From: an uncultured bacterium
GTDB taxonomy: Bacteria; Lernaellota; Lernaellaia; Lernaellales; Lernaellaceae
Reading direction: 5' to 3'
Length of the DNA stretch: 27,257 nt
NCBI GenBank assembly: GCA_964534375.1
Contig: CAZHPN010000021.1
Location: 21,551-48,807, forward strand
The position numbers were made by a program, and so were the translations under genes. Each line of letters opens with the position of its first letter. Positions within the stretch are counted from its first letter, which is position 1. Positions 631-18,268 of the stretch are shown here, piece by piece. Below the pieces are notes generated by a model. The model ran no database searches and was not told where the DNA came from. It saw nothing but the letters and a program-made list of their open reading frames with translations.

Positions 631-2612
631 CACCGCAACCGCGCCGGCAAGATCACCATCGGCATGCCGACCCATTGCAGGCGCGCCTGAATCGCGTACG
701 CGGTCTCGTTGTGCAGCAGACGATGATACCAGCGTTCGCGTTCGAAAATGACTTTGCCGGCGAAAAAGGTGATTTCGGGGAAATCCTGGCGCACCTTCTT
801 GCAGAGTTTTTCGGCCGCGTCCACGATGTCGGCGCCGATGTCATAGCGGCTGGTCGCCGGAATCTTCAGACCGCGCGCGAGTTCCTCGTATTGGTGCAGG
901 GTTCCTTCGGTGCGCTGGCGCACTTCCGCCAGGACGTCGTCGCCGCGAAAGGCGCCGGAATCCACCGCGCCGACCGAGAGAAACACGACGTTCTTGAAGT
1001 GGCTGGGGAAGACGCGGAAGACTTGCAACAACGTGTGAATGCCGAGGCCGCCGTAGGCCGCGACGAGCACGCCGGCCGTCGGCTGGCTGGGATCGACGTC
1101 CAGCGTTGGCGGATCTTTCGCGAGCGGCAAACCTTCCAGATCCGTGAACAACTTCTGAAGTTTCAAGCCGATCTGGCGGTAGTGCGAACGAATGGAATAA
1201 AAGAGAGCCACGACGGCGGTGGTGACGGCGATCGTAATCCAGCCGCCTTCGCCGAACTTCTCGAGGACCGTGCCGACCAGAATCGTCGCGCAGAGCGCGA
1301 ACGCCAAGACGAACAAGGCAAACCGGCCTTTCCACGGGGCCGCTTTTGCGTTCGGCCGCCACCACGAGCGGGCCATGGCGAACATCGACAACGAGAAAGT
1401 CAGGAACACATTGATGCTGTACATGATGACCAGCTTGCGAACTTCGCCCTTCGTGGCAAGCAGGCCGGTCAAGGCGGCCGCGCCCATCAGCGCCACGCCG
1501 TTGGCGGTCGTCAGCCGGTCGGACAGCGTGGAAAAGCGGCGCGGCGCCCACGAGTCGAGGGCCATATTGGCCAGCACGCGCGGGCCGTCGATGAAGCCGG
1601 CTTGCGCGCCGACAATCAGCAGGGCGCCTTCGGAAACGAGCGTCAGGACGGTGAACACGGCGCCGCCCGGCAGCCCGTGGGTCATCTTCTCCACGAGCAC
1701 GGCGTTCATCGTCTTGCCTTCCGTGGCCGCGACGTGCCAAAGCAGATAGCAGATCAGCAAGCCCGCGGCGGTGAAGGCCAGCGAACAGGCCATGTACAAC
1801 ATCGTGCGTTTGGCCGTTCGTACGCGCGGTTCGTGCATGATCGGGATGCCGTTGGAAACCGCTTCAATGCCGGTGTACGTTCCGCCGCCCATCGAGTAGG
1901 CGTGGATGAACAGAAAGAACATGCCCGCGACGCCGAGCGTCGAGAGACCGGAATGAAAATTCACCGCCACCGTCCGGGCGGTCTCGGGCAGCGCTGGAAC
2001 GTGGGCGACGAGGCCGCCGACGATCACGATCAGGTGCGTGGCGACGAAGACCAGGAACACGGGCAAGAGCACCAGCACGGATTCCCGAACGCCGCGGATA
2101 TTGAGCGCCGACAGCAGGATCACCGCGCCGATTTCGGCCGGGACCTTCGCGACGTGCCACTCCATCGGCAAGAAACTGAACAGCGCGTCGCCGGCGGCGG
2201 CGATCGAGACGGTGATTGTCATCACGTAGTCGACCAGCAGCGCGCTGCCGGAGACCACGCCGGCGCCGGGCCCCATCAGCTTCGTCGCGACGATGTAACC
2301 GCCGCCGCCGTGGGGGAAATCCTCGATGAGTCGGCTGTAGGCGGCCGCGATCAGGAACACCGTGAGCGCGGTCATCGCCGCCAGGCCGAGCAGCAAATAG
2401 GTATGGTGGCCGACCGTGCGAAACGCTTCGTCCGGGCCGTACGATGACGAGGACAAGCCATCGGCGCCAAGGCCGACCCAGGCCAAAAACGGCAGCAGCG
2501 ACAGCCGATGGAACAGCGAGCGGTCGCCCAGGTCGCGCGGTTGGCCGATGACCAAGCGCTTCAGGCGATCGGCGACCGGCGGTTTTTCGCGGTGGCTGTC
2601 TTCGTCCGGCAA
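630..2612 (-). CDS. APC-superfamily transporter, KimA/YdaO-like potassium/H+ symporter
   Basis: Many hydrophobic helices plus a soluble C-terminal domain; motifs DGLSSSSYGPDEA, GGGGY, TGIEAVSNG and LLHNETA resemble KimA/YdaO. Start placed at TTG 2612 behind SD-like GGAGAGAGGT (ORF track starts at 2693). Confidence 0.8.
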   Translation of the reverse strand: MPDEDSHREKPPVADRLKRLVIGQPRDLGDRSLFHRLSLLPFLAWVGLGADGLSSSSYGPDEAFRTVGHHTYLLLGLAAMTALTVFLIAAAYSRLIEDFPHGGGGYIVATKLMGPGAGVVSGSALLVDYVMTITVSIAAAGDALFSFLPMEWHVAKVPAEIGAVILLSALNIRGVRESVLVLLPVFLVFVATHLIVIVGGLVAHVPALPETARTVAVNFHSGLSTLGVAGMFFLFIHAYSMGGGTYTGIEAVSNGIPIMHEPRVRTAKRTMLYMACSLAFTAAGLLICYLLWHVAATEGKTMNAVLVEKMTHGLPGGAVFTVLTLVSEGALLIVGAQAGFIDGPRVLANMALDSWAPRRFSTLSDRLTTANGVALMGAAALTGLLATKGEVRKLVIMYSINVFLTFSLSMFAMARSWWRPNAKAAPWKGRFALFVLAFALCATILVGTVLEKFGEGGWITIAVTTAVVALFYSIRSHYRQIGLKLQKLFTDLEGLPLAKDPPTLDVDPSQPTAGVLVAAYGGLGIHTLLQVFRVFPSHFKNVVFLSVGAVDSGAFRGDDVLAEVRQRTEGTLHQYEELARGLKIPATSRYDIGADIVDAAEKLCKKVRQDFPEITFFAGKVIFERERWYHRLLHNETAYAIQARLQWVGMPMVILPARLR

Positions 2613-2701
2613 GCTGGCTGACCTCTCTCCCCGCGTTGCAACAGATGTTGGAAAATAAAACCCGGCTGCCGCCAAAAGGAACGGACGAAACAATGGAACG
2701 T

Positions 2702-2730
2702 AGATTAGACCGCACGCCGGCCGGCGTCAA
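2702..2730 (-). promoter_or_regulatory. sigma70-type promoter for the KimA-like/SGNH genes
   Basis: TTGACG-17 nt-TAATCT on the minus strand, about 90 nt upstream of the TTG start. Confidence 0.6.
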
Positions 2731-2796
2731 TTCGGCGGCGCGCGCCGATACCCGTCTCTCGGCGTCATTCGCCCGACGGCCAAATCCGGAGAAAAA

Positions 2797-3054
2797 TCAG
2801 TTGCTTTCCTTGTGGATCGCTTCGGCGATGCGCTGCCGCGCCGATTCGGGCAACGGCGGCAGCGTCGCGCTTTCGTCGTCCAGGAAATGACCGAGATCGT
2901 TGGCGTGCCGGCGCAGCCACTTGAGCTGACGATCGTAGCGCCTGCAGCCGTCGCAAAAGAGCAGATGCGCCTTGAGCAACACGGACTCGAGTTTGGTCAG
3001 CGGCCGATCCAAGGACTGCGAGGATAGCCACGAAGCGCCGCGGCACGAAATCAT
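2797..3054 (-). CDS. zinc-binding anti-sigma factor (zf-HC2/ZAS), soluble, 85 aa
   Basis: MISCRGASWLSSQSLDRPL...HLLFCDGC, i.e. Cys plus HxxxCxxC; ATGA overlap with the ECF sigma stop at 3051-3054. Confidence 0.85.
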   Translation of the reverse strand: MISCRGASWLSSQSLDRPLTKLESVLLKAHLLFCDGCRRYDRQLKWLRRHANDLGHFLDDESATLPPLPESARQRIAEAIHKESN

Positions 3055-3644
3055 CCCGGCTCCTTTCGTACGCTCTTGCTCTCCCACTTGATTTCCAGGC
3101 ATTGCCGCAAAGCCATCCGCGCGCGATGCAACCTCACCCATAGATTATTCGGAGAAATATGCAAAACCTTACACACTTCTTCGGCGTCGAGGCCGTCAAT
3201 TTCGCGAAGCGCGTACGCATCCGCCGTTTTCGCCGGCAGCGTTCGCAGGCAATCGTGCAGCAATTCCCAAAATTCTTTCTGCTCGAGGGCCTGTTCCGGA
3301 TCCATCGCCCATTGGCCCGGCGAGGCCGCCCACAGGCCGAACCAGTTGAAATCGGTCCGTAACGCCTCGTCGGCGTCGGTTTCGCCGAACGCGGCCTTTT
3401 CGCGGTAGATCCGCCGCAGATGGTCGAGAACTTTGTGCTTGAGAATGCCGACGAGCCAGGTGCGCTCCGACGAATGGCCGGAAAATCCCGCGCGGTTCCG
3501 CAGCGCGGCGATGAAGGTCTCCTGGACCATCTCCTCCGCCGTCGTCGGATCGCGCAGGCGAAACAGGGCATAACGATAGAGGTAGTCGCCGTGGCGCTCG
3601 ACCCATAACTCAGGATTGGTTCGTTCGACCTCGTCGGTCGCCAT
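3051..3644 (-). CDS. ECF RNA polymerase sigma-70 factor (TIGR02943-like)
   Basis: Region 2 (AEEMVQETFIAA...FSGHSSERTWLVGILKHKVLD) and region 4 (LREIDGLDAEEVCKVLHISPNNLWVRLHRAR); start at ATG 3644 (MATDEV) with GAGGG upstream. Confidence 0.9.
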   Translation of the reverse strand: MATDEVERTNPELWVERHGDYLYRYALFRLRDPTTAEEMVQETFIAALRNRAGFSGHSSERTWLVGILKHKVLDHLRRIYREKAAFGETDADEALRTDFNWFGLWAASPGQWAMDPEQALEQKEFWELLHDCLRTLPAKTADAYALREIDGLDAEEVCKVLHISPNNLWVRLHRARMALRQCLEIKWESKSVRKEPG

Positions 3645-3798
3645 CGCGCCCTCGAATCCGGGGAAGTTCGCTGCAAATAATATAAGCAGCGCCGTCATGC
3701 GGCGCCAAGGCGGGTCGTGCGGGACCGGGTTCACGGTCGGCCGGAATTCGCGAGGCCCAGTTGTTACGCCTCGTCGGCCTCGAACTCAAACCTGACGG

Positions 3799-4524
3799 TC
3801 ACCGGCAGTTGGTGCAGACGTTGAGCGACGCCGGGTCGATGCCCATGCGTTTGGCGAACTGGTGCGACAGGGCGTCGGGCAACCAGTAATTGCCGCACTT
3901 CTCGCAGACCAGCATGTCGACTTCGCGATGCCAGCGCTTCAGCCAGCGCTTGCCGCCGGCCTCGCCGAACTCGATGCACTGCGTCGGGCAGGCGAAGGCG
4001 CACGCGCCGCAGGCGATGCAGACCGGGTTTTCCGCGTCGAAGGGCGAGACCGCCCGCCGTTCGAACCCGCGGCCTTCGAAACCAAGCGCCGCCACGCCGA
4101 CGATGTCGCGGCAGATTTGCACACACAGGCCGCAGAGAATGCAGTCGTCGTTCTTTTTTTGGAAGCGCGGGTGCGGCGCGAGAACGCCGTATTGGGCGGC
4201 CAGTTTTTGAATCGGTTCTTCGTCGGGACAGCGCGCCAGCAGCAGGTTGAGCAACATTGCGCGATGGCGGTGAATGCGCGGCGAGTCCGTTTGCACGGCG
4301 ATTTCGCGCCGCACCGTATAGACGCAGGACGGGACGACGCGGGTCTTGCGGCCTTCGTTGACTTCCACCGAGCAAATGCGGCACACGCCGTAGGCGGCGA
4401 CGTTGTCGTTGTGGCACAGGGTCGGCACGTCGACGCCGGCGTCGCGGCAGGCGGTCAGCAGGGGCGTGTCGTAGGGAACGGCGGTCGGCCGGCCGTTGAT
4501 GGTGAGGTTGATCAAATCAGCCAT
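3799..4524 (-). CDS. HydA/NuoG N-terminal-like (BfuA/HoxU-type) Fe-S subunit without catalytic domain
   Basis: [2Fe-2S] motif PTLC..GVCRIC..SC; two ferredoxin motifs CILCGLCVQIC and CIACGACAFACP; extra C-terminal CEKC...CTNC; 241 aa with no H-cluster or molybdopterin domain. Confidence 0.85.
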   Translation of the reverse strand: MADLINLTINGRPTAVPYDTPLLTACRDAGVDVPTLCHNDNVAAYGVCRICSVEVNEGRKTRVVPSCVYTVRREIAVQTDSPRIHRHRAMLLNLLLARCPDEEPIQKLAAQYGVLAPHPRFQKKNDDCILCGLCVQICRDIVGVAALGFEGRGFERRAVSPFDAENPVCIACGACAFACPTQCIEFGEAGGKRWLKRWHREVDMLVCEKCGNYWLPDALSHQFAKRMGIDPASLNVCTNCR

Positions 4525-4527
4525 CGG

Positions 4528-6384
4528 TCACTCCTTGATGATCGCGTCGGCGGGGCAGATTTCGTAGCACTGGCCGCATTTGATGCACTTTTCGACGAGG
4601 ATGCGGTGCACGACTTTCTTCTGACCCTCGACGGCCGCAGCCGGGCACACGCGTTTGCAGGCGCCGCACGCGGTGCAGCGGTCGGGCAGCACTTTGTAGG
4701 TGATCAGCGGCGGGCAGACGCCGGCCGGGCAGCGCTTGTGGTGAATGTGCGCCTCGTACTCGCTGCGGAAGAAGCGCAGCGTCGATTCGACCGGATTGGG
4801 CGCGGTCTGCCCGAGGGCGCAGAGGCTGCACTCGCGGATCGTGCCCGCGAGCGTTTCGATCAGGTCGAGGTCGCCGTCCTGGCCTTTGCCGTCGCAGATG
4901 TCCTGCAAGATGCCGCGCATCTGCGTCAGGCCTTCGCGGCACGGCAGGCACTTGCCGCAGCTTTCGTCGCTGAGGAACGCGGTGAAGTAGCGGGCGAGTT
5001 CCACCATGCAGGTGTTTTCGTCCATGACGATCATGCCGCCCGAGCCCATCATCGAGCCGACGTCGTACAGCTTGTCGAAATCCACCGGCAGGTCGAGGTG
5101 CTCGGCGGGGATGCAGCCGCCCGACGGCCCGCCGGTCTGCACGGCCTTGAATTTCTTTTCCTTCGGGATGCCGCCGCCGATGTTGTAAATGATGTCGCGC
5201 AACGTGATGCCCATCGGCACTTCGATGAGGCCCGTGTTGTTGACCTTGCCGACGAGCGAAAAGATCTTGGTGCCGGGGCTGCCCTCGGTGCCGATCTTGC
5301 GATATTCGTCGGCGCCGTGCAGCACGATGTACGGCACGTTCGCCCAGGTCTCGACGTTGTTCAGGTTCGTCGGCCGGTTGTAAAGGCCGTGCTCGACCGT
5401 GTGCACGTACTTGGCGCGCGGTTCGCCGGCCTGGCCTTCGAGCGAAGCCATCAGCGCGGTGGATTCGCCGCAGACGAAGGCGCCGCCGCCGCGGCTGATC
5501 TTGATGTCGTACGAGAAATCCGTGCCCAGGATGTTCTTGCCCAGCAACCCGGCGGCCCGCGCCTGGTCGATCGCGATGGTCGCGTTCTGGACGGCCAGCG
5601 GATATTCGTTGCGCACGTAGATGTAGCCGTCGTTCGAGCCGATGGCGTACGCGCCGATAACCATGCCTTCGAGCACCGAATGGGGATTGCCCTCCAGCAA
5701 CGAGCGATCCATGTAAGCGCCCGGGTCGCCTTCGTCGGCGTTGCAGACGACGTATTTCGGCGAGCCTTTCGCGTTCCGGCAGCTTTCCCATTTTACACCG
5801 GCCGGGAAGCCGCCGCCGCCGCGCCCGCGCAAGCCGGCCCTCTTCACCTCGGCGATGATCTGGTCCGATTGCATGGTCGCCAGCGCCTTCGCCAGCGCGG
5901 CGTAGCCGCCGAGCGCGATGTAGTCGTCGAGCGAGGTGGGGTCGATCGCGCCGTTATTGCCGAAAATCAGGCGGCGCTGGTGCTTGTAGAACGGCACGTC
6001 GTGCTCGTGCAGCACCTTTTGGTCCTTGTCGGTTTTGTCCGCGTAGAGCAGGCGGTCGATGACTTCGCCGGTCTTTACGGTTTTCTCGACGATCTCAGGC
6101 ACGTCTTTCGCGGAGACGACCTGATAAAAAACCCGCTGCGGATGAATCACGACCAGCGTGCCGCGTTCGCAGAAACCGTGGCAGCCGGTGGCGCGGAATT
6201 CGACTTTGTCGGCGAGCCCCTGCTCGGCCAATTCTTTCTTGAACGCCGCGACGACCTGATTGGCGCCGCAACCGATGCAACCCGTGCCGGCGCAAACCGC
6301 GACCATGACGCGCTGCGGATCGCGGCCCGCGACGAGTTGGCCGCGGTATTCTTCCAAGGCCGCAAAGCTGGTGAGCCTTTCCAT
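4528..6384 (-). CDS. HydB/NuoF-like (BfuB-type) NAD(H)/FMN-binding subunit with C-terminal 2[4Fe-4S]
   Basis: N-terminal thioredoxin-like [2Fe-2S] (CAGTGC, GCHGFC), GLRGRGGGGFP, CNADEGDPGAYMDR, GGPSGGC, ESCGKCLPCREG, HKRCPAGVC, CTACGAC and CIKCGQC. Confidence 0.92.
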   Translation of the reverse strand: MERLTSFAALEEYRGQLVAGRDPQRVMVAVCAGTGCIGCGANQVVAAFKKELAEQGLADKVEFRATGCHGFCERGTLVVIHPQRVFYQVVSAKDVPEIVEKTVKTGEVIDRLLYADKTDKDQKVLHEHDVPFYKHQRRLIFGNNGAIDPTSLDDYIALGGYAALAKALATMQSDQIIAEVKRAGLRGRGGGGFPAGVKWESCRNAKGSPKYVVCNADEGDPGAYMDRSLLEGNPHSVLEGMVIGAYAIGSNDGYIYVRNEYPLAVQNATIAIDQARAAGLLGKNILGTDFSYDIKISRGGGAFVCGESTALMASLEGQAGEPRAKYVHTVEHGLYNRPTNLNNVETWANVPYIVLHGADEYRKIGTEGSPGTKIFSLVGKVNNTGLIEVPMGITLRDIIYNIGGGIPKEKKFKAVQTGGPSGGCIPAEHLDLPVDFDKLYDVGSMMGSGGMIVMDENTCMVELARYFTAFLSDESCGKCLPCREGLTQMRGILQDICDGKGQDGDLDLIETLAGTIRECSLCALGQTAPNPVESTLRFFRSEYEAHIHHKRCPAGVCPPLITYKVLPDRCTACGACKRVCPAAAVEGQKKVVHRILVEKCIKCGQCYEICPADAIIKE

Positions 6385-6388
6385 TGCG

Positions 6389-6868
6389 CTAGTCCTCTTT
6401 CTTCTTCAGGTTGGCCACGATCCGCTTCATTTTTTGCAAACTGGCGTGGCCGACGTATTCGTGATCGACGACCACCAGCGGACCCAGCGCGCAACTGCCG
6501 AGGCAGTTGACCGTGTCCAGCGAGAACTTCAGGTCTTTGGAGGTGCCGCCCGGCGGCAAGTCCAGTTCGCGGGCGATCTGGTCGAGAATGAGTTTCGAGC
6601 CGCGCACATGGCACGCCGTGCCCATGCAGACATGAAATTCGTGCCTGCCCTTCGGTTTGAGGCTGAACGCCTTGTAGAACGTCGCGACGTGATAAACGCG
6701 CGCGACCGGCACGTTCAGCTTGTCGCTCAAGTACAATAACGCGTCGTGCGGCAGGTACCGGTATTCGGTTTGAATGTCCTGCAGCATCAAAATCAGGTTC
6801 GCCGACGTCCCGCCGTTTTTCCGGACGATGGCGTCGACGGTCTCCGGGGCGAAAGTCTCAGCGCCCAT
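6389..6868 (-). CDS. HydC/NuoE-like (BfuC-type) [2Fe-2S] subunit, 159 aa
   Basis: VATFYKAF, VCMGTACHVRG, NCLGSCALGP; start at ATG 6868, 2 nt after the porB stop. Confidence 0.9.
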   Translation of the reverse strand: MGAETFAPETVDAIVRKNGGTSANLILMLQDIQTEYRYLPHDALLYLSDKLNVPVARVYHVATFYKAFSLKPKGRHEFHVCMGTACHVRGSKLILDQIARELDLPPGGTSKDLKFSLDTVNCLGSCALGPLVVVDHEYVGHASLQKMKRIVANLKKKED

Positions 6869-6870
6869 GA

Positions 6871-7842
6871 TCACATCCCCGCTCTGGCTTTGAGGGCCGT
6901 CCAGTCCGCGCGCAGACGCTCGCGGATTTGGGCGAGCAATTCGTCTTTGGTTTTGAGGTGGCGGTACCGGCCTTGCTGGAAGAGATAGTTCGACAGCTCG
7001 GCCATGGGATCGTCCACCGATTTTTTGATCGCCTCGATGTCGAGGTTGATGGTGTATTTGCCCGCGTCCACTTCGTAAAGCGGGAACATGCCGCTTTCGA
7101 CCGCCAACCGGCCGAGGCGGATGCCCAGGTTGGCCTCGCAGCGCCAACCCGTGGGGCAGGGCGCAAACACGTGCAGCACGGCCGGACCATTGACCGTCGC
7201 CGCTTTCTTGACCTTGCGAATCAGGTCGAACGGATAGCTCGGGCAGGCCGTCGCCACGTACGGAATGCGATGCGCGGCGCAGATTTCCGCGAAATTCTTC
7301 TTCCACGTGGTCTGCCCTTCGGGATTCGCGCGGCCCGTCGGGCTCGTGGTCGTCGAGGCGCCCAGCGGCGTGGCCGACGAGCGCTGAATGCCGGTGTTCA
7401 TGTACGCTTCGTTGTCGTAGCAGACGTAGAAGAAATCCGTGCCGCGTTCGAGCGCGCCCGAAAGCGCCTGCAGGCCGATGTCGAGGGTGGCCCCGTCGCC
7501 GCCGATGGCCATCACCGCGATTTTGTTCGGCCGGTCATGATAGAAACGCTGCTTGCGTTTGAGGACTTCGATGCCCGCGCTGACGCCCGAGGCGACGGCG
7601 GCGGCGTTTTCGAAAGCGGCGTGAATCCACGGCACGCGCCAGGCGTTGAACGGATACGGGCTGGAAATGATTTCCATGCAGCCGGTCGCGTTGCAGACGA
7701 TCAGGTCGCGGCCGGTCGCCTTGGTGATTTGCCGCAGCATCAGGGCCGGAATGCAGCCCTGGCAGGCGCGGTGCCCTTGCACGAACAGCTCTTCCTGCGG
7801 CAGCAGCCGGGCGGCGTAGACGCCGTAATTGACATCGTTCAT
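6871..7842 (-). CDS. porB: pyruvate/2-oxoacid:ferredoxin oxidoreductase beta subunit (TPP-binding)
   Basis: GHRACQGC, ATGCMEI, GGDG...YDNEAYMNTGIQRS TPP motif, CPTGW; ATGA overlap with porA stop. Confidence 0.9.
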   Translation of the reverse strand: MNDVNYGVYAARLLPQEELFVQGHRACQGCIPALMLRQITKATGRDLIVCNATGCMEIISSPYPFNAWRVPWIHAAFENAAAVASGVSAGIEVLKRKQRFYHDRPNKIAVMAIGGDGATLDIGLQALSGALERGTDFFYVCYDNEAYMNTGIQRSSATPLGASTTTSPTGRANPEGQTTWKKNFAEICAAHRIPYVATACPSYPFDLIRKVKKAATVNGPAVLHVFAPCPTGWRCEANLGIRLGRLAVESGMFPLYEVDAGKYTINLDIEAIKKSVDDPMAELSNYLFQQGRYRHLKTKDELLAQIRERLRADWTALKARAGM

Positions 7843-9032
7843 TCGCGCACCCCCACCATTTCGTAAATCGGCGCCGCGCCGCGGTCGATGTAGTCGATGC
7901 CCTTTTGGATCATGGCGCGGAAGTCGCCGACCGTGACGTCGCGGCCGCCGAGGCCGCCGATGAAGCCGACGACCGTCGGCCGCTGGGGCAGGTTGTACAG
8001 GCTGGCCTTGATTTCCGTGGCCGCAGGTCCGCCGGTTCCGGCGACGCTGAGGCAGCGATCGAAGACGATGACGCCTTTGACGCCGGCGAGCGCCTGGCGA
8101 ATTTTCTCGTGCGGGAACGGCCGCCACAACCGCAGGCGAATCTGCCCGACCTTGACCCCGGCGGCGCGCAATTCGTCAATGGCGACCGAGGCGGTCTCGC
8201 CCAGTCCGCCGATCGTGACCAGCAGATAGTCGGCGCCCTCGGTCCGGTACGGTTCGACGGCCGCGTACGACCGGCCGAACTCCCTGGCGAATTTCTCCCA
8301 AATTTCCTCGATGACCGCCTGGCTGTCGATCAGCGCGACGTCGTGCGCCTTCTTGGTTTCGGTGTAGACCTCGGGAATGCCCACGGGGCCGAACATCTTC
8401 GGATCGCGCGGGTCGAGCCGTTGCAGGGGCTGATAGACGCCGAGGAAATCGCGGATTTTCCCGGTCGGGTAGAACACCATCGGCTCGATCACGTGGCTCA
8501 TTTGGAAGCCGTCCATATTGACGATGGTCGGCAACGTGACGCGATGGTCCTCGGCGATCTTGAACGCGCAGATGGTCTGGTCGATCACTTCCTGGCCGTT
8601 TTCCGTGAAGATCTGCACCCACCCCGTGTCGCGTTCGGCCATGATGTCGCTTTGGTCGCCCCAGATGTTGATCGGGGCGGAGAGCGCGCGGTTGACGCAC
8701 GACATGACGATCGGCAGCCGCATGCCCGACGCGATGTAGAGCATCTCGTGCATCAGCGCGAGGCCCTGGCTGGAGGTCGCCGTAAAGGTGCGAGCGCCGA
8801 CCGCCGACATGCCGATGCAGGCGCTCATCGCCGAATGTTCGGATTCCACGGGCATGAACGCCGCGTCCAAATCGCCGTCGGCGACGAGTTCGGCCAGGTG
8901 CTCGACGATATGCGTTTGCGGCGTGATCGGGTAGGCCGCGATGCAATCGACGTCGCACTGGGCGACGACTTCGGCCTGCGCAATCGACACTTCCATGCCA
9001 ATCGGCTTGCCGGGCGTAATTCGGCCGCTCAT
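7839..9032 (-). CDS. porA: pyruvate/2-oxoacid:ferredoxin oxidoreductase alpha subunit
   Basis: AYPITPQT, VESEHSAMS, TATSSQGLALM, NRALSAPINIWGDQSD; SD GGAGGAGG; ATGA overlap with the delta subunit stop. Confidence 0.92.
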   Translation of the reverse strand: MSGRITPGKPIGMEVSIAQAEVVAQCDVDCIAAYPITPQTHIVEHLAELVADGDLDAAFMPVESEHSAMSACIGMSAVGARTFTATSSQGLALMHEMLYIASGMRLPIVMSCVNRALSAPINIWGDQSDIMAERDTGWVQIFTENGQEVIDQTICAFKIAEDHRVTLPTIVNMDGFQMSHVIEPMVFYPTGKIRDFLGVYQPLQRLDPRDPKMFGPVGIPEVYTETKKAHDVALIDSQAVIEEIWEKFAREFGRSYAAVEPYRTEGADYLLVTIGGLGETASVAIDELRAAGVKVGQIRLRLWRPFPHEKIRQALAGVKGVIVFDRCLSVAGTGGPAATEIKASLYNLPQRPTVVGFIGGLGGRDVTVGDFRAMIQKGIDYIDRGAAPIYEMVGVRE

Positions 9033-9352
9033 CGTTTGACCTCCTCCAGCATCACGATCGCGCCGGTGGGGCATTCCGCCGCGCACACGCCGCAGCCTTT
9101 GCAGAAGTTGAAATTGAAGTCGAAGTAGTGCGTGTACATCGCGCCTTCGGGCGCTTTCTGCCGGCGGACGGCGCGGCGCGAATTGTCGGGGCAATAGATC
9201 CAGCAGACGCCGCAGGCGATGCACTTGTTCTCGTCGGTCCGCGGGTAGTTGCTGCGCCAATCGCCGGTTTTGTATTCGACGGCGGTTCCGGGTTCGGACA
9301 CGGCGCAGCCCAGCGGCATTTCGGTCCAGGTGGGCAGCAGTTTGGTTTTCAT
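9029..9352 (-). CDS. porD: pyruvate/2-oxoacid:ferredoxin oxidoreductase delta subunit (2[4Fe-4S])
   Basis: KTGDWR..P, CIACGVCWIYCPD, FCKGCGVCAAECP; start ATG 9352 overlaps the gamma subunit stop. Confidence 0.9.
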   Translation of the reverse strand: MKTKLLPTWTEMPLGCAVSEPGTAVEYKTGDWRSNYPRTDENKCIACGVCWIYCPDNSRRAVRRQKAPEGAMYTHYFDFNFNFCKGCGVCAAECPTGAIVMLEEVKR

Positions 9353-9903
9353 GCGGGGTTCTCCGAAACGGCTTCGTCGAAGGCGCGTTTGAGGACGGCG
9401 AGGTTCTTCGGGCCGATTTTGCCGAACCGTTCCAGCAGCGGCGTCTCCATGCTCGCCAGATTCACGCAGCCGCAGGCCTTGATCGCCGCGCCGAGCATTG
9501 TGGTGTTGGTGATCGGACGGCCGAGTCCTTCCAGCGCGATTTTCGTGGCGTCGACGCAGAAGATCCGGCACTTCAGCTTGTAGCGCTCGCGCAATTCCGC
9601 GGCGGTCTTGTGCGTGTTGACGATGACCACGCCGTCGGCCTTCATGCCGGCTTCGACGTTGACGATGTTCATCAGCGCCTCTTCCAGCACCACCGCGATA
9701 TCGGGCTCGTAAATCGCTTGCCGCAGACGGATCGGCCGCGAATCGATGCGCGCGAACGCCAGCACCGGCGCGCCGCGCCGCTCGGGCCCGAAGCTCGGGA
9801 ACGCCTGCGCGAATTTGCCTTCGGCGATGGCCGCCTGGGCGAGCAGTTCCGCGCTGGTGACGGCGCCTTGGCCGCCGCGGCCGTGAAAGCGTATTTCGAT
9901 CAT
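9349..9903 (-). CDS. porC: pyruvate/2-oxoacid:ferredoxin oxidoreductase gamma subunit
   Basis: [33 protein letters not shown]. Confidence 0.92.
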
Positions 9904-9951
9904 GAGGACAACCTTTCCCTTCAGCGAAATGGCCGCCAATTTTCGGGGCGG

Positions 9952-9980
9952 ATGCTAGTTCCGCGAAAACTGAAAGTCAA
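9952..9980 (-). promoter_or_regulatory. sigma70-type promoter of the por-bfu operon
   Basis: TTGACT-17 nt-TAGCAT about 50 nt upstream of the porC ATG, with AT-rich sequence upstream. Confidence 0.6.
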
Positions 9981-10043
9981 ACGCCGAGAAGTTAGTTATT
10001 TGTGATTATATCTCGCGGAGTTTGCGCCAAGTTTGCACGCGCA

Positions 10044-10197
10044 CTATTCGCCGCAAATCCAAGTCGGGCTGACCTGCGCGCGCCGGACGCCGCCGTCCAC
10101 GCCGAGGCAAACAACCTGCAGCCAGCCGTCCGGCGCGATCGCCATGTTGAGGCCAGTCCCGCCGTAGTTCATGCCTTCATCAGCGTCAATATTGTTT
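10044..10197 (-). pseudogene. probable C-terminal remnant of a secreted beta-propeller-like protein
   Basis: Protein-like stretch NNIDADEGMNYGGTGLNMAIAPDGWLQVVCLGVDGGVRRAQVSPTWICGE* with no credible upstream coding continuation. Confidence 0.3.
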
Positions 10198-10583
10198 GAC
10201 CGTCCACGCGCCGTTATGGAGGACAGCCAACGCCGGGCCGAGGGCCGGAACGATGGCCACCCAAACGTCCCCGTCCGCCGCAGGGCAAACCTATCCAAAC
10301 CCCCAGCAGCTTTTTGACGCAATCGTCGTTCCGTCCGGCCGTGAGCCATTTGGCGGGGGGCCGTGTTTCTCCTTGAGAGGCTTCGTTTTCGCACAGGTTG
10401 ACGCCAATTGGCGCAGGGCGACGAGGTTCTCGGCGGCATCCCGATCCGCGCACGTCCTTTTCCCCGCCCGGCGCAGCGTGCAAACGGCGCGCGACGCGCC
10501 GAACCGCCGGCCGGCCGCCCGTGCAGCCGGCCGGCGTCCCGAACAAGGTGCTCCCAAACAAGGCGCCAGCCACTTCGGAGACG

Positions 10584-10796
10584 GACCCGTGCAGCGGGTG
10601 CGCCCAAGATGGCGGCCCGGCGGGCGGATGTTACTGGCCGTCGCAACTGAGCGGGGCATCCACCGATACCCCCTACTGGTCGTCCTCCGAGGAAGCGGAC
10701 GCCAGCGACGTGGCGCGGATGATCAACTTCAGCTTCGGCTACGTCTACCGCTTCGACGAACCGAACAACTACGACGCGCGTTGCGTTCGTCAGTGA
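10584..10796 (+). pseudogene. C-terminal fragment of a DUF1566/Lcl (C-type-lectin-like) domain protein
   Basis: DPCSGC..GGPAGGCYWPSQLSG...YWSSS...ARMINFSFGYV...ARCVRQ* matches the YWSSS...F..G...RCVR end of DUF1566; in-frame sequence upstream does not look protein-like. Confidence 0.65.
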
Positions 10797-10884
10797 ACGG
10801 ACCGTAGAAATAGGTTCCTTGCAGGCTGTTGGGAACGCACACCATGACACTTGACACAGCAGCATTATTTGGCCACAAGGATCT

Positions 10885-12186
10885 ATGCCGCGGAGTGCAA
10901 AAGTCCTGGTCGCCTTTTCAGCCTTTCTCCTTGTCATGGCTTGGCCCCTTTCGGCCGAACGGTCGGATAACCAATGGCCAGCAGCGGCAAAGCGAGAACT
11001 CGTATGGTCGGCGCCGGGACAAGAAATTCTTACGCCGCAATTTTCGCAGGATGGAGATTTCATTACTCTTGTGACGCGCGGCTATTCACCGGACGGCTGT
11101 GACGCCGAAGGACTGCCGGACTCTTACTTCAAGGCGCTGGAAGCGAAAGAAAAAGCCAATCCGCGCTTTGCTGATCCGGTCATCAAAGTGATCGACTTGC
11201 GCGGAAACATCGCCTGCGAAGTCAAATACGGATGGCATCCAAGCCTTTCTCGCGATAGCAAACGACTGGTTTTTTCGGAGCAAGTCAAGCCTATTACTGG
11301 CCTTCGAGCGCTTGCCGCAACAATGGAAGGCAATGGCATTCGAATGTATGACTGCGCATCAAAGCAAATCGTGAAGATCGCCGACCCGCATACGGGCTAC
11401 CTTGACAATCCTTTTTTCTCGCCGGGTGGCGGATCAATCATGTATACCTACGATGAGGCCGTAAACGGCGCATTTGGCGGCGCCGTTGGGATTTCTCGAT
11501 TTGATTTGCAGCAAAATGGCGAGATAACGCTCGTCGACAAGAAAACCGTTGCTGCCGTCCCATGTCCGCCCGCGCGCTCCGAGGGATCTCGCCTTGAAGC
11601 AATTCTGTGTTCGCATTTGAAAAATCAACCGAGCAGCTTTTCCCAGATCGTCTACATGGTCGTTCCCGTTGGAAATGATGTTGTCGCATTGTTGGGCACG
11701 CCGCTTCCCGCGCCCGGCGACATGTACATGGCCAACAGTTACGACATGAGCTTGGTTTCCGTGTATCCTGCGCTACGATTGGTCTTGTCGTTCGGAGTGC
11801 GGAAAGCTGCCGACAAGATTGCCTTTCAAACTGTGTCGGGCGAAAGGATCCTGATTTTCTCGGAATATTGGAAGGCCTATTCGCTTTCAACGGGAAAGCC
11901 GCTGCCGGACATCGGGCCTAAAAATACAAACCTGAAGAGCACATACAGTCCTGATCTCAAATATTACCTCCGCGCCCAAGCGGCTCAACGAGACGGAGAA
12001 CCGGACCGTTTTGTGCTGTATCGTACGGCCGACGGCAAGCGACTCGAAAGCCTGCCTAGAATGGCGCGCGCAGATGAGGCGGTGTGGAGTCTAGATTCGA
12101 GTCGATTCGCGATAGTCGGAGTGCCGATTGCTGGCGCGAAGCCGACGCATCACGTGGAACAACTGATCGTTTACTCCGTTCGCTAG
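10885..12186 (+). CDS. secreted TolB/PD40-like beta-propeller protein, function unknown
   Basis: Signal peptide (VLVAFSAFLLVMAWPLSA); repeated blade motifs PQFSQDG, PSLSRDS, PFFSPGG, YSPDLK, WSLDSS; 433 aa; visibly more A/T-ending codons than neighbours. Confidence 0.7.
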   Translation: MPRSAKVLVAFSAFLLVMAWPLSAERSDNQWPAAAKRELVWSAPGQEILTPQFSQDGDFITLVTRGYSPDGCDAEGLPDSYFKALEAKEKANPRFADPVIKVIDLRGNIACEVKYGWHPSLSRDSKRLVFSEQVKPITGLRALAATMEGNGIRMYDCASKQIVKIADPHTGYLDNPFFSPGGGSIMYTYDEAVNGAFGGAVGISRFDLQQNGEITLVDKKTVAAVPCPPARSEGSRLEAILCSHLKNQPSSFSQIVYMVVPVGNDVVALLGTPLPAPGDMYMANSYDMSLVSVYPALRLVLSFGVRKAADKIAFQTVSGERILIFSEYWKAYSLSTGKPLPDIGPKNTNLKSTYSPDLKYYLRAQAAQRDGEPDRFVLYRTADGKRLESLPRMARADEAVWSLDSSRFAIVGVPIAGAKPTHHVEQLIVYSVR

Positions 12187-12218
12187 TCTGGAAATCCGGC
12201 GCCGACGCGCGTCAAACG

Positions 12219-12243
12219 GGGTGGCCTTTGCCGCCTAATTTTT
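12219..12243 (+). terminator. weak intrinsic terminator candidate between the propeller gene and convergent pilS
   Basis: GGGTGGC-CTTT-GCCGCCT hairpin followed by AATTTTT. Confidence 0.3.
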
Positions 12244-13923
12244 ATAGATCGTTATCGGATAGTCTTTGGTCGAAGGCAGGAGCACGTGAAAAACGGCGCC
12301 GCCGCCGCCCGGCGAGTCGACGAAAATCTTGCCGTTGTGATTTTCCACGATGCGGTAGGCGATGGTCAGGCCCAGGCCGGTGCCTTTTTCCTTGGTCGTG
12401 AAGAACGGATCGAAGATCGAGCCCATGATGTCCTTGTCGATGCCCTTGCCGGTGTCGCGCACCTCGACCTCGGCGTACCCGGGGTAGCGCGTCGAAAACC
12501 GCGCGACGACGGTCAGCGCGCCGGGGCCGTCGTCCATGGCTTGGACAGCGTTCAGGCACAGGTTCCAGAACAACTGGCGAATCTGGTCGGGGTCAAAGCG
12601 ACAGATGAGGTTTTTTTGCAAATCGGACTCGATCACGATGCGGTCCTGGACGGCGGGATCATGAGCCAACACGCCCAGTTGCTCGGCCAGAATCTCGGAA
12701 AGATCGGCGATGGAATCGTGCCGCTGCGCCGGCCGCGCGTAGGTCAGGAACTCGTTGATCAGCTTGTTGAGCCGATCGGTCTCGCGCATGACGATGTTCA
12801 TCAGTTGCGTGTGGATGGGGTCCAACTGCAATTCGCTTTGCAGCAATTGAATGGCGCCGGACATGCTGGCCAGCGGGTTGCGAATTTCGTGGGCCATGCC
12901 GGCCGCCAGCTTGCCGATGGCCGCTTGCCGGTCCGCCTGTTTCGCGGCCTGCTCCAACTCGCGCAATGCGGTGACGTCCTGGAGGGTCACGACCCGGCCC
13001 GCCACCTGGCCGCCGGCGTCGCGCAGGTTGTGCGCCGTAATCGACAGCACCGATCGTCGGTCGGAATCCGGACTGAAATCGACGTCCATCGGACTGACGT
13101 GCCCGACGGACGCGCCTAACGGCGGCAGCAATTCGCCGAGCCGGCGGCCGCGCAACTCCGGGTCGCCACGGCCGAGAATCGGTTGGACCGCCTCATTGGC
13201 GAAAATCACCACGCCGCGCCGGTCGCACGTGATCAGGCCGATGGGCAGCGACTGCACGATGTTCTTGTTCAGAATCCTGAGATCTTCCATTTCCTGGGTT
13301 TGCCGCTGAAGTTGCAGCGACGCGGCTTGCGTCCGGGCGGCGAGGTAACTGGCCATCATTCCCGACGCGAAGTAGGCGAGGGCGTTAAGGAGGATCTTGA
13401 CGAAGACTTCCTCGTTCGTCGGCGGCTTGAGATCGAGGCCCAGCAGATCGAACGGTTGCCACACGCCCCAGAGTTGCCCGCAAAGCACGGCCGCGTAGGC
13501 GACCGAACTGGCGAAGGCGATGAAGATGCTCTGTCCCCGGCCGATGAAGATGCCGGCGTAGATGATGGTCAGCACGTACAGGAACGAGAACAGGCTGAAG
13601 AATGAGCCGGTGAAGTACACGAGCACCGTGACGAACAGGAAGTCCCAGTAGATCTGGAAGAGCACGAACAGCCGGCTGGACGCTTTGCGTTCGATCAGCG
13701 TCGCGGAAAGCAACGTGATCAGCACGTTGACGCCGATCATGCCGTAGACGACGGCGGACGAGCGGGGCCCATAAAGAACGTACGTCGATCCGAGGATGAA
13801 GAACGCGACGACGACGCGGAGGAACACGAGCCATTGGAGCAGGCGCACCTGCTCGGGCGCCGAGCCGGCCGCAATTTTGAAAGGCGCGGCGGGGGCGGAG
13901 ATTTTCGCCGGCTTACTTGCCAA
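12235..13923 (-). CDS. pilS: PilS-type membrane sensor histidine kinase (TM-PAS-HisKA-HATPase)
   Basis: Several TM helices, PAS-like region, AHEIRNPLASM H-box, NAVQAM, DTGKGI, FDPFFTTK, GTGLGL; directly follows pilC. Start uncertain (TTG 13923 or GTG 13848). Confidence 0.8.
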   Translation of the reverse strand: MASKPAKISAPAAPFKIAAGSAPEQVRLLQWLVFLRVVVAFFILGSTYVLYGPRSSAVVYGMIGVNVLITLLSATLIERKASSRLFVLFQIYWDFLFVTVLVYFTGSFFSLFSFLYVLTIIYAGIFIGRGQSIFIAFASSVAYAAVLCGQLWGVWQPFDLLGLDLKPPTNEEVFVKILLNALAYFASGMMASYLAARTQAASLQLQRQTQEMEDLRILNKNIVQSLPIGLITCDRRGVVIFANEAVQPILGRGDPELRGRRLGELLPPLGASVGHVSPMDVDFSPDSDRRSVLSITAHNLRDAGGQVAGRVVTLQDVTALRELEQAAKQADRQAAIGKLAAGMAHEIRNPLASMSGAIQLLQSELQLDPIHTQLMNIVMRETDRLNKLINEFLTYARPAQRHDSIADLSEILAEQLGVLAHDPAVQDRIVIESDLQKNLICRFDPDQIRQLFWNLCLNAVQAMDDGPGALTVVARFSTRYPGYAEVEVRDTGKGIDKDIMGSIFDPFFTTKEKGTGLGLTIAYRIVENHNGKIFVDSPGGGGAVFHVLLPSTKDYPITIYKN

Positions 13924-15130: not shown

Positions 15131-15174
15131 CGAGCGAACCTCCCGGCTGCTGCACTACTCCCTAGTCTACCACA

Positions 15175-16257
<1,083 letters not shown>

Positions 16258-16354
16258 GACTTCGTCCCCCCGGTTGTTGATCTGCCTCGCAGCCGCGTCG
16301 CGTTTGCCCCCCGCGGCACACCAACCCCTGGCCGACGAGCGCCGGATCCCGGCG

Positions 16355-18097: not shown

Positions 18098-18161
18098 TAA
18101 TAGAACCTCCGACTGCAAAAATACGCTCTCCCGGCCTGGGCCGGGGAAGACAACCCGTTCG

Positions 18162-18191
18162 ACTCTACTCGCCGCTCATTCTTTCTGTCAA
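18162..18191 (-). promoter_or_regulatory. sigma70-type promoter of pilBTCS
   Basis: TTGACA-18 nt-TAGAGT about 65 nt upstream of pilB. Confidence 0.55.
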
Positions 18192-18268
18192 GCGCTAGCG
18201 ACGGCTGAAGCCGCCGCCGACAGCGTTTGCCCGCTGGGTCGGACAAAGCCGTATCTAACCGAAATATC

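Follow-up and report, generated by a model that had tools for sequence, protein, structure and literature searches.

Seven adjacent genes on a contig from an uncultured bacterium (CAZHPN010000021.1) raise the question of whether a four-subunit 2-oxoacid:ferredoxin oxidoreductase (POR) can act as the catalytic module of an electron-bifurcating enzyme of the HydABC/Bfu family. The locus was analyzed in a 27,257-nt stretch of this contig, referred to in the following as the window. As a class, such an enzyme has already been predicted and is hence not new: Schut et al. named it Por-Bfu (Por-BfuABCDEFG), a Type 2 Bfu enzyme, in 2022, with 12 sequences in BfuB clades 35, 44 and 45 and with Chloroflexi and Proteobacteria as hosts (PMC9304861). 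An earlier note on this DNA had stated that POR-associated members were predicted from genomes, and this paper is such a prediction. It offers neither a docking mechanism nor an assay, and a November 2026 review of PFOR mentions neither Bfu nor confurcation. In the literature searched, we found no purification or assay, leaving Por-Bfu a predicted Bfu type still awaiting one. If the prediction is true, it would alter how NADH and ferredoxin are balanced in the central carbon metabolism of an entire uncultured phylum and of Dehalococcoidia-type bacteria, and would allow a pyruvate synthase at half the low-potential ferredoxin cost.

Organization of the operon

All seven genes lie on the minus strand, in the order porC-porD-porA-porB-bfuC-bfuB-bfuA (Table 1). 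As described in the earlier note, each por gene overlaps the next by ATGA (three junctions), and gaps of 2, 4 and 3 nt follow at the remaining three. Its statement that the operon includes no hydrogenase, formate dehydrogenase or membrane Nuo subunit also held, and a family scan found none among 24 other ORFs of the window. The porB–bfuC gap was between −35 and +32 nt, by automatic start calls, in 39 of the 44 loci holding both genes. An 882-aa ORF on the opposite strand (3862–6510) is presumably a shadow frame that arises from the high GC content. The ECF sigma, anti-sigma and permease genes downstream were not found in 16 relative loci searched and were therefore left out of the operon.

Table 1. 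Features of the por–bfu locus (positions in the window).
Feature	Position	Strand	Length	Evidence
porC, gamma subunit (CoA-binding domain)	9349..9903	minus	184 aa	PRK08534 227.1 bits vs cut-off 225; TIGR02175; PF01558
porD, delta subunit, 2x[4Fe-4S] C44,47,50,54,84,87,90,94	9029..9352	minus	107 aa	TIGR02179 above cut-off
porA, alpha subunit, YPITP motif, Arg115	7839..9032	minus	397 aa	PorA_Arch 474.8 bits vs cut-off 550
porB, beta subunit, TPP motif GDG...DNEAYMNTG, cluster Cys27/30/55/229	6871..7842	minus	323 aa	PRK11865 375.9 bits vs cut-off 405
PorB residues 5–17 (N-Y-G-V-Y-A-A-R-L-L), proposed BfuA docking segment	7792..7830	minus		core of modelled interface; linked-only V8+Y9 class
bfuC (NuoE/HydC-like), C1 [2Fe-2S] Cys81/86/122/126	6389..6868	minus	159 aa	PF01257 E 3.6e-45
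bfuB (NuoF/HydB-like): B5, FMN/NADH site, B1, five B2 ligands, B3/B4	4528..6384	minus	618 aa	Pfam domains; 7T2R_B, 9MQX_B matches
bfuA (NuoG-N-like), Type 2: A1 [2Fe-2S], A2/A4 2x[4Fe-4S]	3799..4524	minus	241 aa	9MQX_A full-length match, E 4.6e-43
BfuA C-terminal Cys4 finger (C207, C210, C237, C240)	3805..3906	minus		read from sequence
sigma-70-type promoter candidate, TTGACT-17-TAGCAT	9952..9980	minus		motif scan + family upstream alignment

The single promoter candidate that the earlier note had placed before the operon fared less evenly. The motif scan alone stood at chance level, with two promoter-type matches against 1.4 expected, but both boxes (TTGAC and TAG..T) were invariant in 8/8 aligned family upstream regions. 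The one match to a Rex-box consensus had three mismatches and lay away from the promoter, which is chance level. Short contigs identical or nearly identical to the por and bfu genes were present in three RNA-library runs from two studies, with none over 10079–10900. Depth was low, DNA carry-over is possible and none of the 24 pieces listed spans porB–bfuC, so we make no claim of co-transcription.

Assignment of the bfu genes

Judged from its sequence, the operon is a Type 2 Por-Bfu. BfuA has A1, A2 and A4 without A3, lacks a catalytic domain and is accompanied by extra subunits for the third reaction; these are four POR subunits with a TPP site and extra [4Fe-4S] clusters, encoded in one gene cluster with bfuABC. 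BfuB (PF01512, PF10531, PF10589, PF00037) and BfuC (PF01257) have the domain set of the BfuABC family, using Pfam equivalents of the InterPro entries. In BfuB, C31/36/68/72 and two C-terminal CxxCxxCxxxCP motifs match the B5, B3 and B4 cysteines, and the B2-site ligands are C459, C497, H546, C552 and C557; the published B2 ligands are Cys438, His525, Cys531, Cys536 and a variable residue at 476, alongside the B5, B3 and B4 cysteines (PMC9304861). The NADH/FMN-site motifs, DEGDPGAYM and GAFVCGES, follow the DEGDPGA[FY]M and GAFVCGE of bifurcating members (PMC9304861). Every published bifurcation motif is retained in this BfuB, and the motifs occur in 39–41 of 41 POR-linked BfuB. The best PDB matches were 7T2R_B (E 9.7e-236) and 9MQX_B (E 2.2e-234), and by eye the ESTAL motif agrees with the clade-45 rows of PMC9304861. 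POR-linked BfuB was not monophyletic in a tree of 80 sequences, which had a weak backbone and did not include the published references. A non-bifurcating NuoEFG/HoxEFU diaphorase was rejected: the B2–B5 sites are present, and EPG/GAY-type motifs and an N5 cluster in the G/U subunit are not.

BfuA has no A3 motif (HxxxCxxCxxxxxC), unlike HydA, NuoG and a protein on contig C149 of the same genome, and no large NuoG domain. Its predicted model superimposed on 9MQX_A with a TM score of 0.90 and an rmsd of 1.9 Å at 37% identity. The protein ends in CTNCR, one residue past the last finger Cys, with no adaptor helix. Likewise, Por-BfuA has been described with a Zn-finger motif and without the C-terminal helix, and its docking was left open (PMC12318220). 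The Cys4 finger was found by regex in 27 of 33 linked BfuA, while those of loci L036, L081 and L142 lack the Cys. A search of the genome contigs with a single BfuA query gave three loci.

The POR subunits and their substrate

PorC scored above the PRK08534 cut-off; PorA, PorB and PorD scored best on POR models yet under their equivalog cut-offs. The closest solved structure to PorA and PorB was the Methanosarcina acetivorans PFOR, 9BT4 (alpha subunit, E 6.7e-94; 9BT4_C, E 2.7e-80), and the PorB cluster Cys were invariant in 34/34 sequences. Phenylglyoxylate dehydrogenase was rejected, the PadE/F/G/I models giving 170, 67, 306 and 209 bits against cut-offs of 300, 150, 700 and 700. The PorD loop insertion of 9–10 residues was considered as a general Bfu adaptor and rejected; it is lineage-specific, as 28–29 residues separate the cluster motifs in Lernaellota-type loci versus 18–19 in other Bfu-linked loci.

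Pyruvate is the likely main substrate by these family comparisons. The same mechanism with another main 2-oxoacid (2-oxobutyrate, branched-chain or aromatic) would suit a host class that has been called proteolytic (PMC9324843), and PorA and PorB do fall below all substrate-specific NCBIfam cut-offs. Against this, each of the four subunits scored higher on POR models than on VOR, Pad or OOR models, five further OFOR alpha genes are present in the genome, including VOR-like, KOR-sized and IOR-sized ones, and a metabolic model of Dehalococcoides requires the four-gene POR as pyruvate synthase (PMC2930330). We consider a different main substrate improbable.

Distribution and gene loss

Of the 16 class relatives, 14 have all or part of the operon; it sits on a single contig in 11, is split over contig ends in two, and lacks bfuB in one. 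The same arrangement occurred at 22 of 80 metagenome loci and in 7 of 100 Chloroflexota genomes, so that a synteny search, as suggested in the earlier note, shows wide co-occurrence of the two modules. In a PorAB tree, all 42 Bfu-linked sequences fell in one clade (SH 0.903), separate from 34 unlinked ones; this single clade, a feature of the sequences compared, is new here. When Chloroflexota loci were picked by PorB alone, a BfuA-type gene came next in 8/8 top-class matches versus 0/19 other fetched POR loci. The linked PORs are all related to one another, which confounds clade with linkage. PorAB and BfuB identities correlated (r 0.83, 34 loci), which was not counted as support because kin share both.

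Also new here is that, by gene content, BfuA stays with the POR where BfuB/C is lost or replaced (L158, L112, L120/L128/L143, L040). In L158, only a 119-aa BfuA remnant with the dicluster and finger follows porB, and in L120, L128 and L143, where the POR belongs to the linked clade, BfuA is accompanied by a simple GltD-like NAD(P)H flavoprotein. Loci that have lost bfuB or bfuB/C show that the bifurcating core is not essential for this POR to work. Among 436 longer PorB relatives, the best 120 comprised 29 PorB–GltD fusions and otherwise mostly intein-containing PorB, and none of them was a PorB–BfuA (Rosetta-stone) fusion.

A model for docking of POR to BfuA

A predicted model of PorD, PorB and BfuA scored 0.85, and the best of three controls 0.01, against a mark reached by 116 of 157 solved pairs and 2 of 215 mismatched pairs, although a three-chain run falls outside this calibration. 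It was built from our own alignments and left out PorA, PorC, BfuB/C and all cofactors. Runs agreed in at least 87% of contacts, with a partner pLDDT of at least 86. The PorB N-terminal segment was placed on BfuA. The earlier note had proposed looking for a PorD-to-BfuA wire in a predicted structure; PorD is placed on BfuA, but it contacts mainly the Cys4 finger rather than A4. In classes picked after viewing the alignment, PorB V8+Y9 occurred in 42/42 linked versus 0/34 unlinked sequences, BfuA V142 in 39/40 linked versus 3/21 others, and R193 in 39/40 versus 10/21. Methanophagales PorB bearing the N-terminal motif also exist. The model suggests that the PorB N-terminal segment is the BfuA docking element, which is new here and would be a specific, mutable answer to the Por-Bfu docking question.

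Proposed mechanism and energetics

We favor, on balance, a soluble Por-Bfu complex with coupled NAD/ferredoxin reduction and the modelled docking. PorABCD, with TPP and CoA, would catalyze the reversible conversion of a small 2-oxoacid to acyl-CoA and CO2, as its family membership indicates; the 2-oxoacid is most likely pyruvate. Electrons would exit through the PorB and PorD clusters to A4 of BfuA instead of to free ferredoxin, with the PorB N-terminal segment standing in for the C-terminal helix of Wor-Bfu BfuA, as the modelled contact and its conservation suggest. By homology to assayed Bfu enzymes, they would pass along A4-A2-A1 to the B1-FMN-C1 site of BfuBC, from which one pair would reduce NAD+ and the other pair would reach ferredoxin through B3/B4. 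The net reaction would be 2 pyruvate + 2 CoA + NAD+ + 2 Fd(ox) <-> 2 acetyl-CoA + 2 CO2 + NADH + 2 Fd(red). In the oxidative direction, pyruvate oxidation could continue against a highly reduced ferredoxin pool, and the 1:2 NADH:Fd mix would feed the HydABC hydrogenase of the genome, which also encodes a 55-aa 2[4Fe-4S] ferredoxin on contig C59. This direction is likelier in the host, since no PDH E1 or RnfC was found in its genome, although an acetyl-CoA synthase gene there would be compatible with an anabolic role. Dehalococcoidia-like genomes yielded no four-subunit POR other than that of Por-Bfu, which in these hosts would act as a pyruvate synthase with half the demand for reduced ferredoxin.

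The computed equilibrium pyruvate concentration was 0.04–0.4 mM at the mean NADH/ferredoxin potential (E0' −500 mV), 0.2–2 M with ferredoxin alone at −500 mV and <0.1 µM for direct NAD+ reduction, figures that move about 20-fold with E0' (−500 versus −540 mV). Only at the mean NADH/ferredoxin potential is the reaction at equilibrium at physiological pyruvate, which is new here. Carboxylation by NADH and ferredoxin was computed to be feasible only with pyruvate at or below about 0.002–0.4 mM. PFOR clusters have been measured at −385 to −475 mV (PMC12337175).

Alternative explanations

The seven proteins very probably form one physical complex, as the three-chain model and gene-loss patterns suggest. 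Two co-transcribed but separate enzymes, a ferredoxin-linked POR and a BfuABC for some other partner, such as the Nuo of contig C103, which has no EFG part, or some hydrogenase elsewhere, seem improbable to us to the same degree as a different substrate. Clade-45-type BfuABC does pair with many modules (CODH, AOR, Rnf, CCG proteins), no NuoE/F/G-like gene was found on C103, and bfuB is missing from the operon in genome G012. However, neither the His-ligated A3/N5 motif nor the large NuoG domain is present in this BfuA, a BfuA remnant persists behind porB after loss of the rest, and the PorB–BfuA model passes its controls. The FeFe hydrogenase, the Hox hydrogenase and one complete Nuo of the genome each have their own EFG-type genes, which argues against the EFG module serving a hydrogenase elsewhere, an outcome that the earlier note had said would refute its proposal. 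That proposal, that POR is the third-reaction module of a HydABC/Bfu core, agrees with the published prediction and is supported by the co-occurrence, the dedicated POR clade, the retention of BfuA and the model.

Given a complex, strict coupling of NAD and ferredoxin reduction is probable. The complex might instead be leaky, a 2-oxoacid:NAD+ oxidoreductase whose PorD still feeds free ferredoxin, reducing the two acceptors independently. Under standard conditions, either reduction is exergonic (PMC9304861), POR carries its own ferredoxin-reducing domain, and within this POR clade BfuA is also found next to the GltD-like flavoprotein. We nevertheless regard this as unlikely: all features separating bifurcating from non-bifurcating BfuB (PMC9304861, Suppl. 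Figs 9–10) are retained, and coupling is strict in Wor-Bfu, whose substrate has an equally low potential and whose BfuA fold is the closest. Direct NAD+ reduction would also be irreversible, a poor fit to genomes where this POR is the only four-subunit POR found. Still less probable than any of these is a different wiring, with POR at the BfuB B3/B4 ferredoxin site, BfuA fed mid-potential electrons from outside, and NAD+ reduction driving acetyl-CoA carboxylation uphill. PorD is ferredoxin-like, and dividing four electrons of about −400 mV between acceptors at −280 and −520 mV would balance, but gene loss links POR to BfuA rather than BfuB, and the model, which lacks BfuB, sets PorB and PorD on BfuA.

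A broader extension of the coupled Por-Bfu reading is more tentative. The dedicated POR clade might form a five-subunit POR–BfuA unit held by the PorB N-terminus, with an exchangeable electron module: BfuBC, Nuo genes, a GltD-like NAD(P)H flavoprotein, or no module at all. Combined with BfuBC, the enzyme would work reversibly, poised at physiological pyruvate, and some hosts would use it as a CO2-fixing carboxylase taking half its electrons from NADH by confurcation. Confurcation within one complex is not reported for any 2-oxoacid oxidoreductase in the literature searched.

Comparison with known systems

The predicted Por-Bfu enzymes share the four POR subunits with BfuABC and a BfuA with A1/A2/A4 only (PMC9304861), the Cys4 finger without the C-terminal helix (PMC12318220), the BfuB motif GGGAFVCGESTAL of the D. 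mccartyi Por row, compared by eye (PMC9304861), and, in seven Chloroflexota genomes, an identical gene order. The operon differs in its probable host phylum, Ca. Lernaellota, which is outside the list in PMC9304861, in its lineage-specific PorD loop, and in the Cys at the variable fifth B2 ligand (205/1558 of the Bfu set there). Wor-Bfu, WorABC(SL)3 of Acetomicrobium mobile (9MQX), is an assayed bifurcating enzyme (PMC12318220) with the closest solved BfuA, the second-closest BfuB, a low-potential third substrate and entry at A4. However, it uses a tungsten aldehyde oxidoreductase rather than a TPP enzyme, and its WorA C-terminal helix recruits WorS; the operon has neither that helix nor a WorS nanowire subunit.

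The M. acetivorans PFOR has the same four subunits and cofactor motifs, but is a stand-alone, ferredoxin-linked enzyme whose beta subunit has no counterpart of the proposed docking segment, its alignment starting at query residue 21. In PadEFGHI, the NADH-dependent phenylglyoxylate dehydrogenase, an additional flavoprotein links a four-subunit OFOR to NAD+. By NCBIfam names, it too combines a four-subunit OFOR with an NAD+ module, but the four subunits here score far under the Pad cut-offs and lower than on POR models, and the NAD module is BfuABC. Compared with HydABC, NiFe-HydABCSL and NfnABC (7P5H, 7Q4V, 7T2R, 9N5U), BfuA lacks the H-cluster, the FAD or pterin domain and the A3 cluster, whereas the BfuBC core, the B1-FMN-C1 site and B3/B4 are shared.

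Operon organization and conservation

The seven genes on the minus strand encode the four subunits of a 2-oxoacid:ferredoxin oxidoreductase (POR) and NuoE-, NuoF- and NuoG-N-like proteins (BfuC, BfuB and BfuA). The operon described in the earlier note was confirmed from the sequence and translations, with ATGA overlaps at the first three junctions and gaps of 2, 4 and 3 nt at the last three. The absence of a hydrogenase, formate dehydrogenase or membrane Nuo subunit also held in a family scan of the 24 other window ORFs, which include an amino-acid permease, an ECF sigma factor, type IV pilus genes, a MoxR/vWA pair, a heavy-metal ATPase and a redoxin. The promoter candidate was conserved in 8/8 family upstream regions, but stood at chance level by motif scan alone.

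pilS is the immediate upstream neighbor of the operon in all seven family relatives whose sequence covered that flank; in the window, unlike in these relatives, an insert of 2.1 kb separates pilS from the por promoter. GC falls to 53% at 11001–12000, inside the insert, and its Lcl-like piece has 12 further matches elsewhere in the host genome. The ECF sigma/anti-sigma/permease group was not found in the relatives' loci; exact matches to this region occur among short RNA-library contigs of run X3. The 882-codon antisense frame was taken as a high-GC shadow frame.

Features of the window and of the loci discussed in the text
Feature	Location	Strand	Description
porC	window 9903–9349	minus	gamma subunit, pyruvate/2-ketoisovalerate-family oxidoreductase (NCBIfam, Pfam)
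porD	window 9352–9029	minus	delta subunit, same family (NCBIfam, Pfam)
porA	window 9032–7839	minus	alpha subunit, same family (NCBIfam, Pfam)
porB	window 7842–6871	minus	beta subunit, same family (NCBIfam, Pfam)
bfuC	window 6868–6389	minus	NuoE-like (NCBIfam, Pfam)
bfuB	window 6384–4528	minus	NuoF-like (NCBIfam, Pfam)
bfuA	window 4524–3799	minus	NuoG-N-like (NCBIfam, Pfam)
882-codon open frame	window 3862–6510	plus	antisense to bfuBA
ECF sigma factor, zf-HC2 anti-sigma, amino-acid permease	window 630–3647		downstream of bfuA
Insert, 2.1 kb	window 10044–12235		between pilS and por promoter
Lcl_C-like C-terminal fragment	window 10398–10796		in insert; E 2.8e-4, below cut-off
433-aa ORF	window 10885–12186		in insert; no Pfam match
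Type IV pilus cluster and vWA/MoxR pair	window 12235–21315		PilS-like kinase, PilC, two ATPases (family scan)
OFOR operon	L009 (G000:C89) 3950–8313		porC, GltD-like flavoprotein fused to PorD, porA, porB
Second Nuo operon	L013 (G000:C103) 2146–13484		histidine-kinase-like gene between nuoD and nuoH
porCDAB-bfuC-bfuA	L040 (G012) 222–4531		no bfuB; same arrangement in L041
bfuCBA	L042 5727–11271		directly preceded by Rnf/Nqr membrane genes
OFOR, bfuCBA	L046 5601–11032		KOR/VOR-type OFOR, 26–29% identity, directly ahead of bfuCBA
porB, bfuA, Nuo genes	L112 7978–12016		bfuA directly after porB, then NuoB-, NuoC-, NuoD-like genes
Mini-BfuA, 119 aa	L158 8139–8498		behind porB; tRNA-like stretch next

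The co-occurrence of the two modules, for which the earlier note had proposed a synteny search, was found in class relatives, metagenome stretches and Chloroflexota genomes. Among 16 class relatives, the seven genes stood in order on one contig in 11 (one of these frameshifted), were split over contig ends in two and lacked bfuB in one; neither module was found with these queries in two. Metagenomes were scanned with a BfuA alignment of 81 sequences; of 288 confirmed stretches, the best 80 were kept, giving 22 with a close PorB followed by bfuC-bfuB-bfuA, three with POR, a GltD-like flavoprotein and bfuA, one with bfuA directly after porB and three with a degenerate porB ahead of bfuCBA, the remainder of the 80 being short or having other partners.

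The 100 Chloroflexota genomes were searched with PorB alone, and hence without BfuA-based selection bias. Eight matches were set apart (E ≤ 2.6e-113; next best 3.6e-88), seven of them with a full Por-Bfu operon. At the eighth, L158, porCDAB is followed by a protein comprising only the BfuA dicluster and finger, and bfuB and bfuC are absent from the locus. No bfu genes were found in the 19 loci examined of 29 other PorB matches, several of these stretches ending at contig borders. The eight top-match genomes measure 1.4–2.4 Mb, and in seven of them this was the sole PorB-family match at E 1e-50.

Phylogeny and variant pairings

A PorA+PorB tree of 76 loci and 691 columns (one duplicate, two frameshifted loci and the short loci L014–L028 omitted) grouped 42/42 Bfu-linked PORs as a single clade (SH-like 0.903), with 17 stand-alone and 17 GltD-type PORs outside it; the linked loci were mostly found via BfuA, so that the sampling is biased. 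The BfuB tree was poorly resolved, POR-linked sequences being mixed among CODH-, CCG-, AOR- and KOR-linked ones, which agrees with the available text of PMC9304861, where three clades are given.

Several loci depart from the standard arrangement. In L120, L128 and L143, a POR of the Bfu-linked clade and BfuA are accompanied by a GltD-like protein with a NuoF-type 4Fe-4S domain, replacing BfuB/C. The genome of L040 and L041 has further bfuB copies, one within a CODH/ACS-linked bfuCBA cluster. L112 is a possible link of POR-BfuA to a complex I-type operon, and L046 is possibly an independent OFOR-Bfu pairing.

Redox gene set of the host

Among named relatives, the window BfuA is nearest to that of Ca. 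Lernaella stagnicola (71%), followed by Ca. Alcyoniella australis (57%), which makes Ca. Lernaellota (FEN-1099) the probable host phylum. Both a saccharolytic and a proteolytic metabolism are described for Ca. Lernaellota, along with FeFe group A3, FeFe C3 and NiFe 3d hydrogenases, and the POR-Bfu link goes unmentioned for them (available text of PMC9324843). All three hydrogenase types are present in the host genome (6.3 Mb, 94% complete, 64% GC). Its redox genes include FeFe HydABC in complete form, a Hox hydrogenase, a full set of Nuo genes, six OFOR alpha genes, a 55-aa ferredoxin, an acetyl-CoA synthase gene and a weak ICL-family match; no PDH-type E1 and no RnfC were found there. The second Nuo operon had no match to NuoE/F/G. 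The second four-gene OFOR operon, L009, is probably NAD(P)-linked; its type occurs in 15/17 class genomes, each time alongside a Bfu-linked POR operon.

Predicted docking of POR on BfuA

The structure prediction proposed earlier for the heptamer was run as three chains, PorD, PorB and BfuA, each with a 33–34-row alignment, and came out in favor of the complex with a score of 0.85, against 0.01 for the best of three controls. The model mark was reached by 116/157 solved complexes and 2/215 mismatched pairs, counts that are only roughly valid for a three-chain job. Contacts agreed by at least 87% between runs, with partner pLDDT of at least 86. As a model, this supports binding of PorD/PorB to BfuA rather than demonstrating it; PDB searches gave no entry naming POR together with Bfu chains. 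The tightest modelled contacts were PorB 6, 9, 10, 12 and 13 on BfuA 137–142 and 172–178, around Cys138/172/175, and BfuA 238–239 on PorB 242–246 and PorD 93. From ferredoxin-fold ligation, we take the BfuA patch to surround cluster A4; PorD 42–47 and 92–97 presumably surround the distal cluster.

With residue classes set after viewing the alignment, an aliphatic plus aromatic pair at PorB positions 8–9, within the proposed docking segment (residues 5–17), was present in 42/42 linked and 0/34 unlinked PorB, and a stricter pattern in 34/42 and 0/31. On the BfuA side, V142 occurred in 39/40 POR-linked versus 3/21 other-partner sequences and R193 in 39/40 versus 10/21, again in classes set after viewing. 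The PorB segment was recognizable in all three degenerate PorB adjoining bfuCBA. In 29 fusions (P0128–P0160; 52–61% identity to the window PorB), PorB is joined to a GltD-like NAD(P)H flavoprotein; these sit inside the clade of linked PORs, on a branch that is long and has weak support, with the motif in 0/28 scorable sequences and a BfuA segment in none of the 29. Four longer PorB relatives (P0127, P0136, P0141 and P0156) carry an intein and the proposed motif, two being named from Methanophagales archaea.

Energetics and direction

Equilibrium pyruvate was calculated at POR −500, NADH −280 and Fd −500 mV (Table 1 in the available text of PMC9304861), pCO2 0.2 and acetyl-CoA/CoA of 1–10. The coupled reaction gave 0.04–0.4 mM, or 0.002–0.02 mM at POR −540 mV; Fd alone at −500 mV gave 0.2–2 M and NAD alone less than 0.1 µM. 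On these figures, the POR couple would act in cells as a mid-potential reaction, which answers a puzzle raised in PMC9304861 (available text); in agreement with this, PFOR clusters have been measured at −385 to −475 mV (available text of PMC12337175). Oxidation is the likelier role in this host; in Dehalococcoides, a metabolic model requires the four-gene POR as pyruvate synthase (available text of PMC2930330).

Comparison with known Bfu enzymes

The earlier note described POR-associated members as predicted from genomes, and the class is indeed in print as a prediction (available text of PMC9304861). No Por-Bfu assay or structure appeared in the literature searched, which covers few subscription papers; in a 2026 PFOR review (PMC13768988), a search for the terms Bfu, confurc and Dehalococc gave 0 matches, and the available text of PMC13689815 leaves Por-Bfu untreated. 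The window operon is a real, conserved case of the named Por-Bfu kind, itself a prediction. The analysis adds to this a distribution across the phylum, a dedicated clade for the linked PORs, the observation that BfuA is kept with POR, and a specific hypothesis for the docking.

The window BfuB has the B5 cysteines, DEGDPGAYM, GAFVCGES, GGPSGG, the B1 cysteines and five of five B2 ligands, together with a pair of C-terminal [4Fe-4S] motifs. Across POR-linked BfuB, positions of the flavin site, of B1 and of the fixed B2 ligands are kept in 39–41/41 sequences and the B5 cysteines in 36–38/41. These flavin-site, B1, B2, B5 and C-terminal features divide bifurcating from non-bifurcating homologues (available text of PMC9304861); the flavobicluster and ferredoxin site are defined in PMC12018979 (available text). 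In BfuA, the A1 site, the A2/A4 dicluster and a Cys4 finger are present, and a motif search found no His-ligated A3 motif. Among solved structures, BfuA is best matched by WorA, from the bifurcating aldehyde oxidoreductase, both by sequence (E 4.6e-43) and by fold (model pLDDT 88.8; TM 0.90). WorA recruits its partner via a C-terminal helix, and a Por-Bfu homologue is described as having the finger and not the helix (available text of PMC12318220). Unlike WorA of Wor-Bfu, the window BfuA stops one residue past the Cys4 finger.
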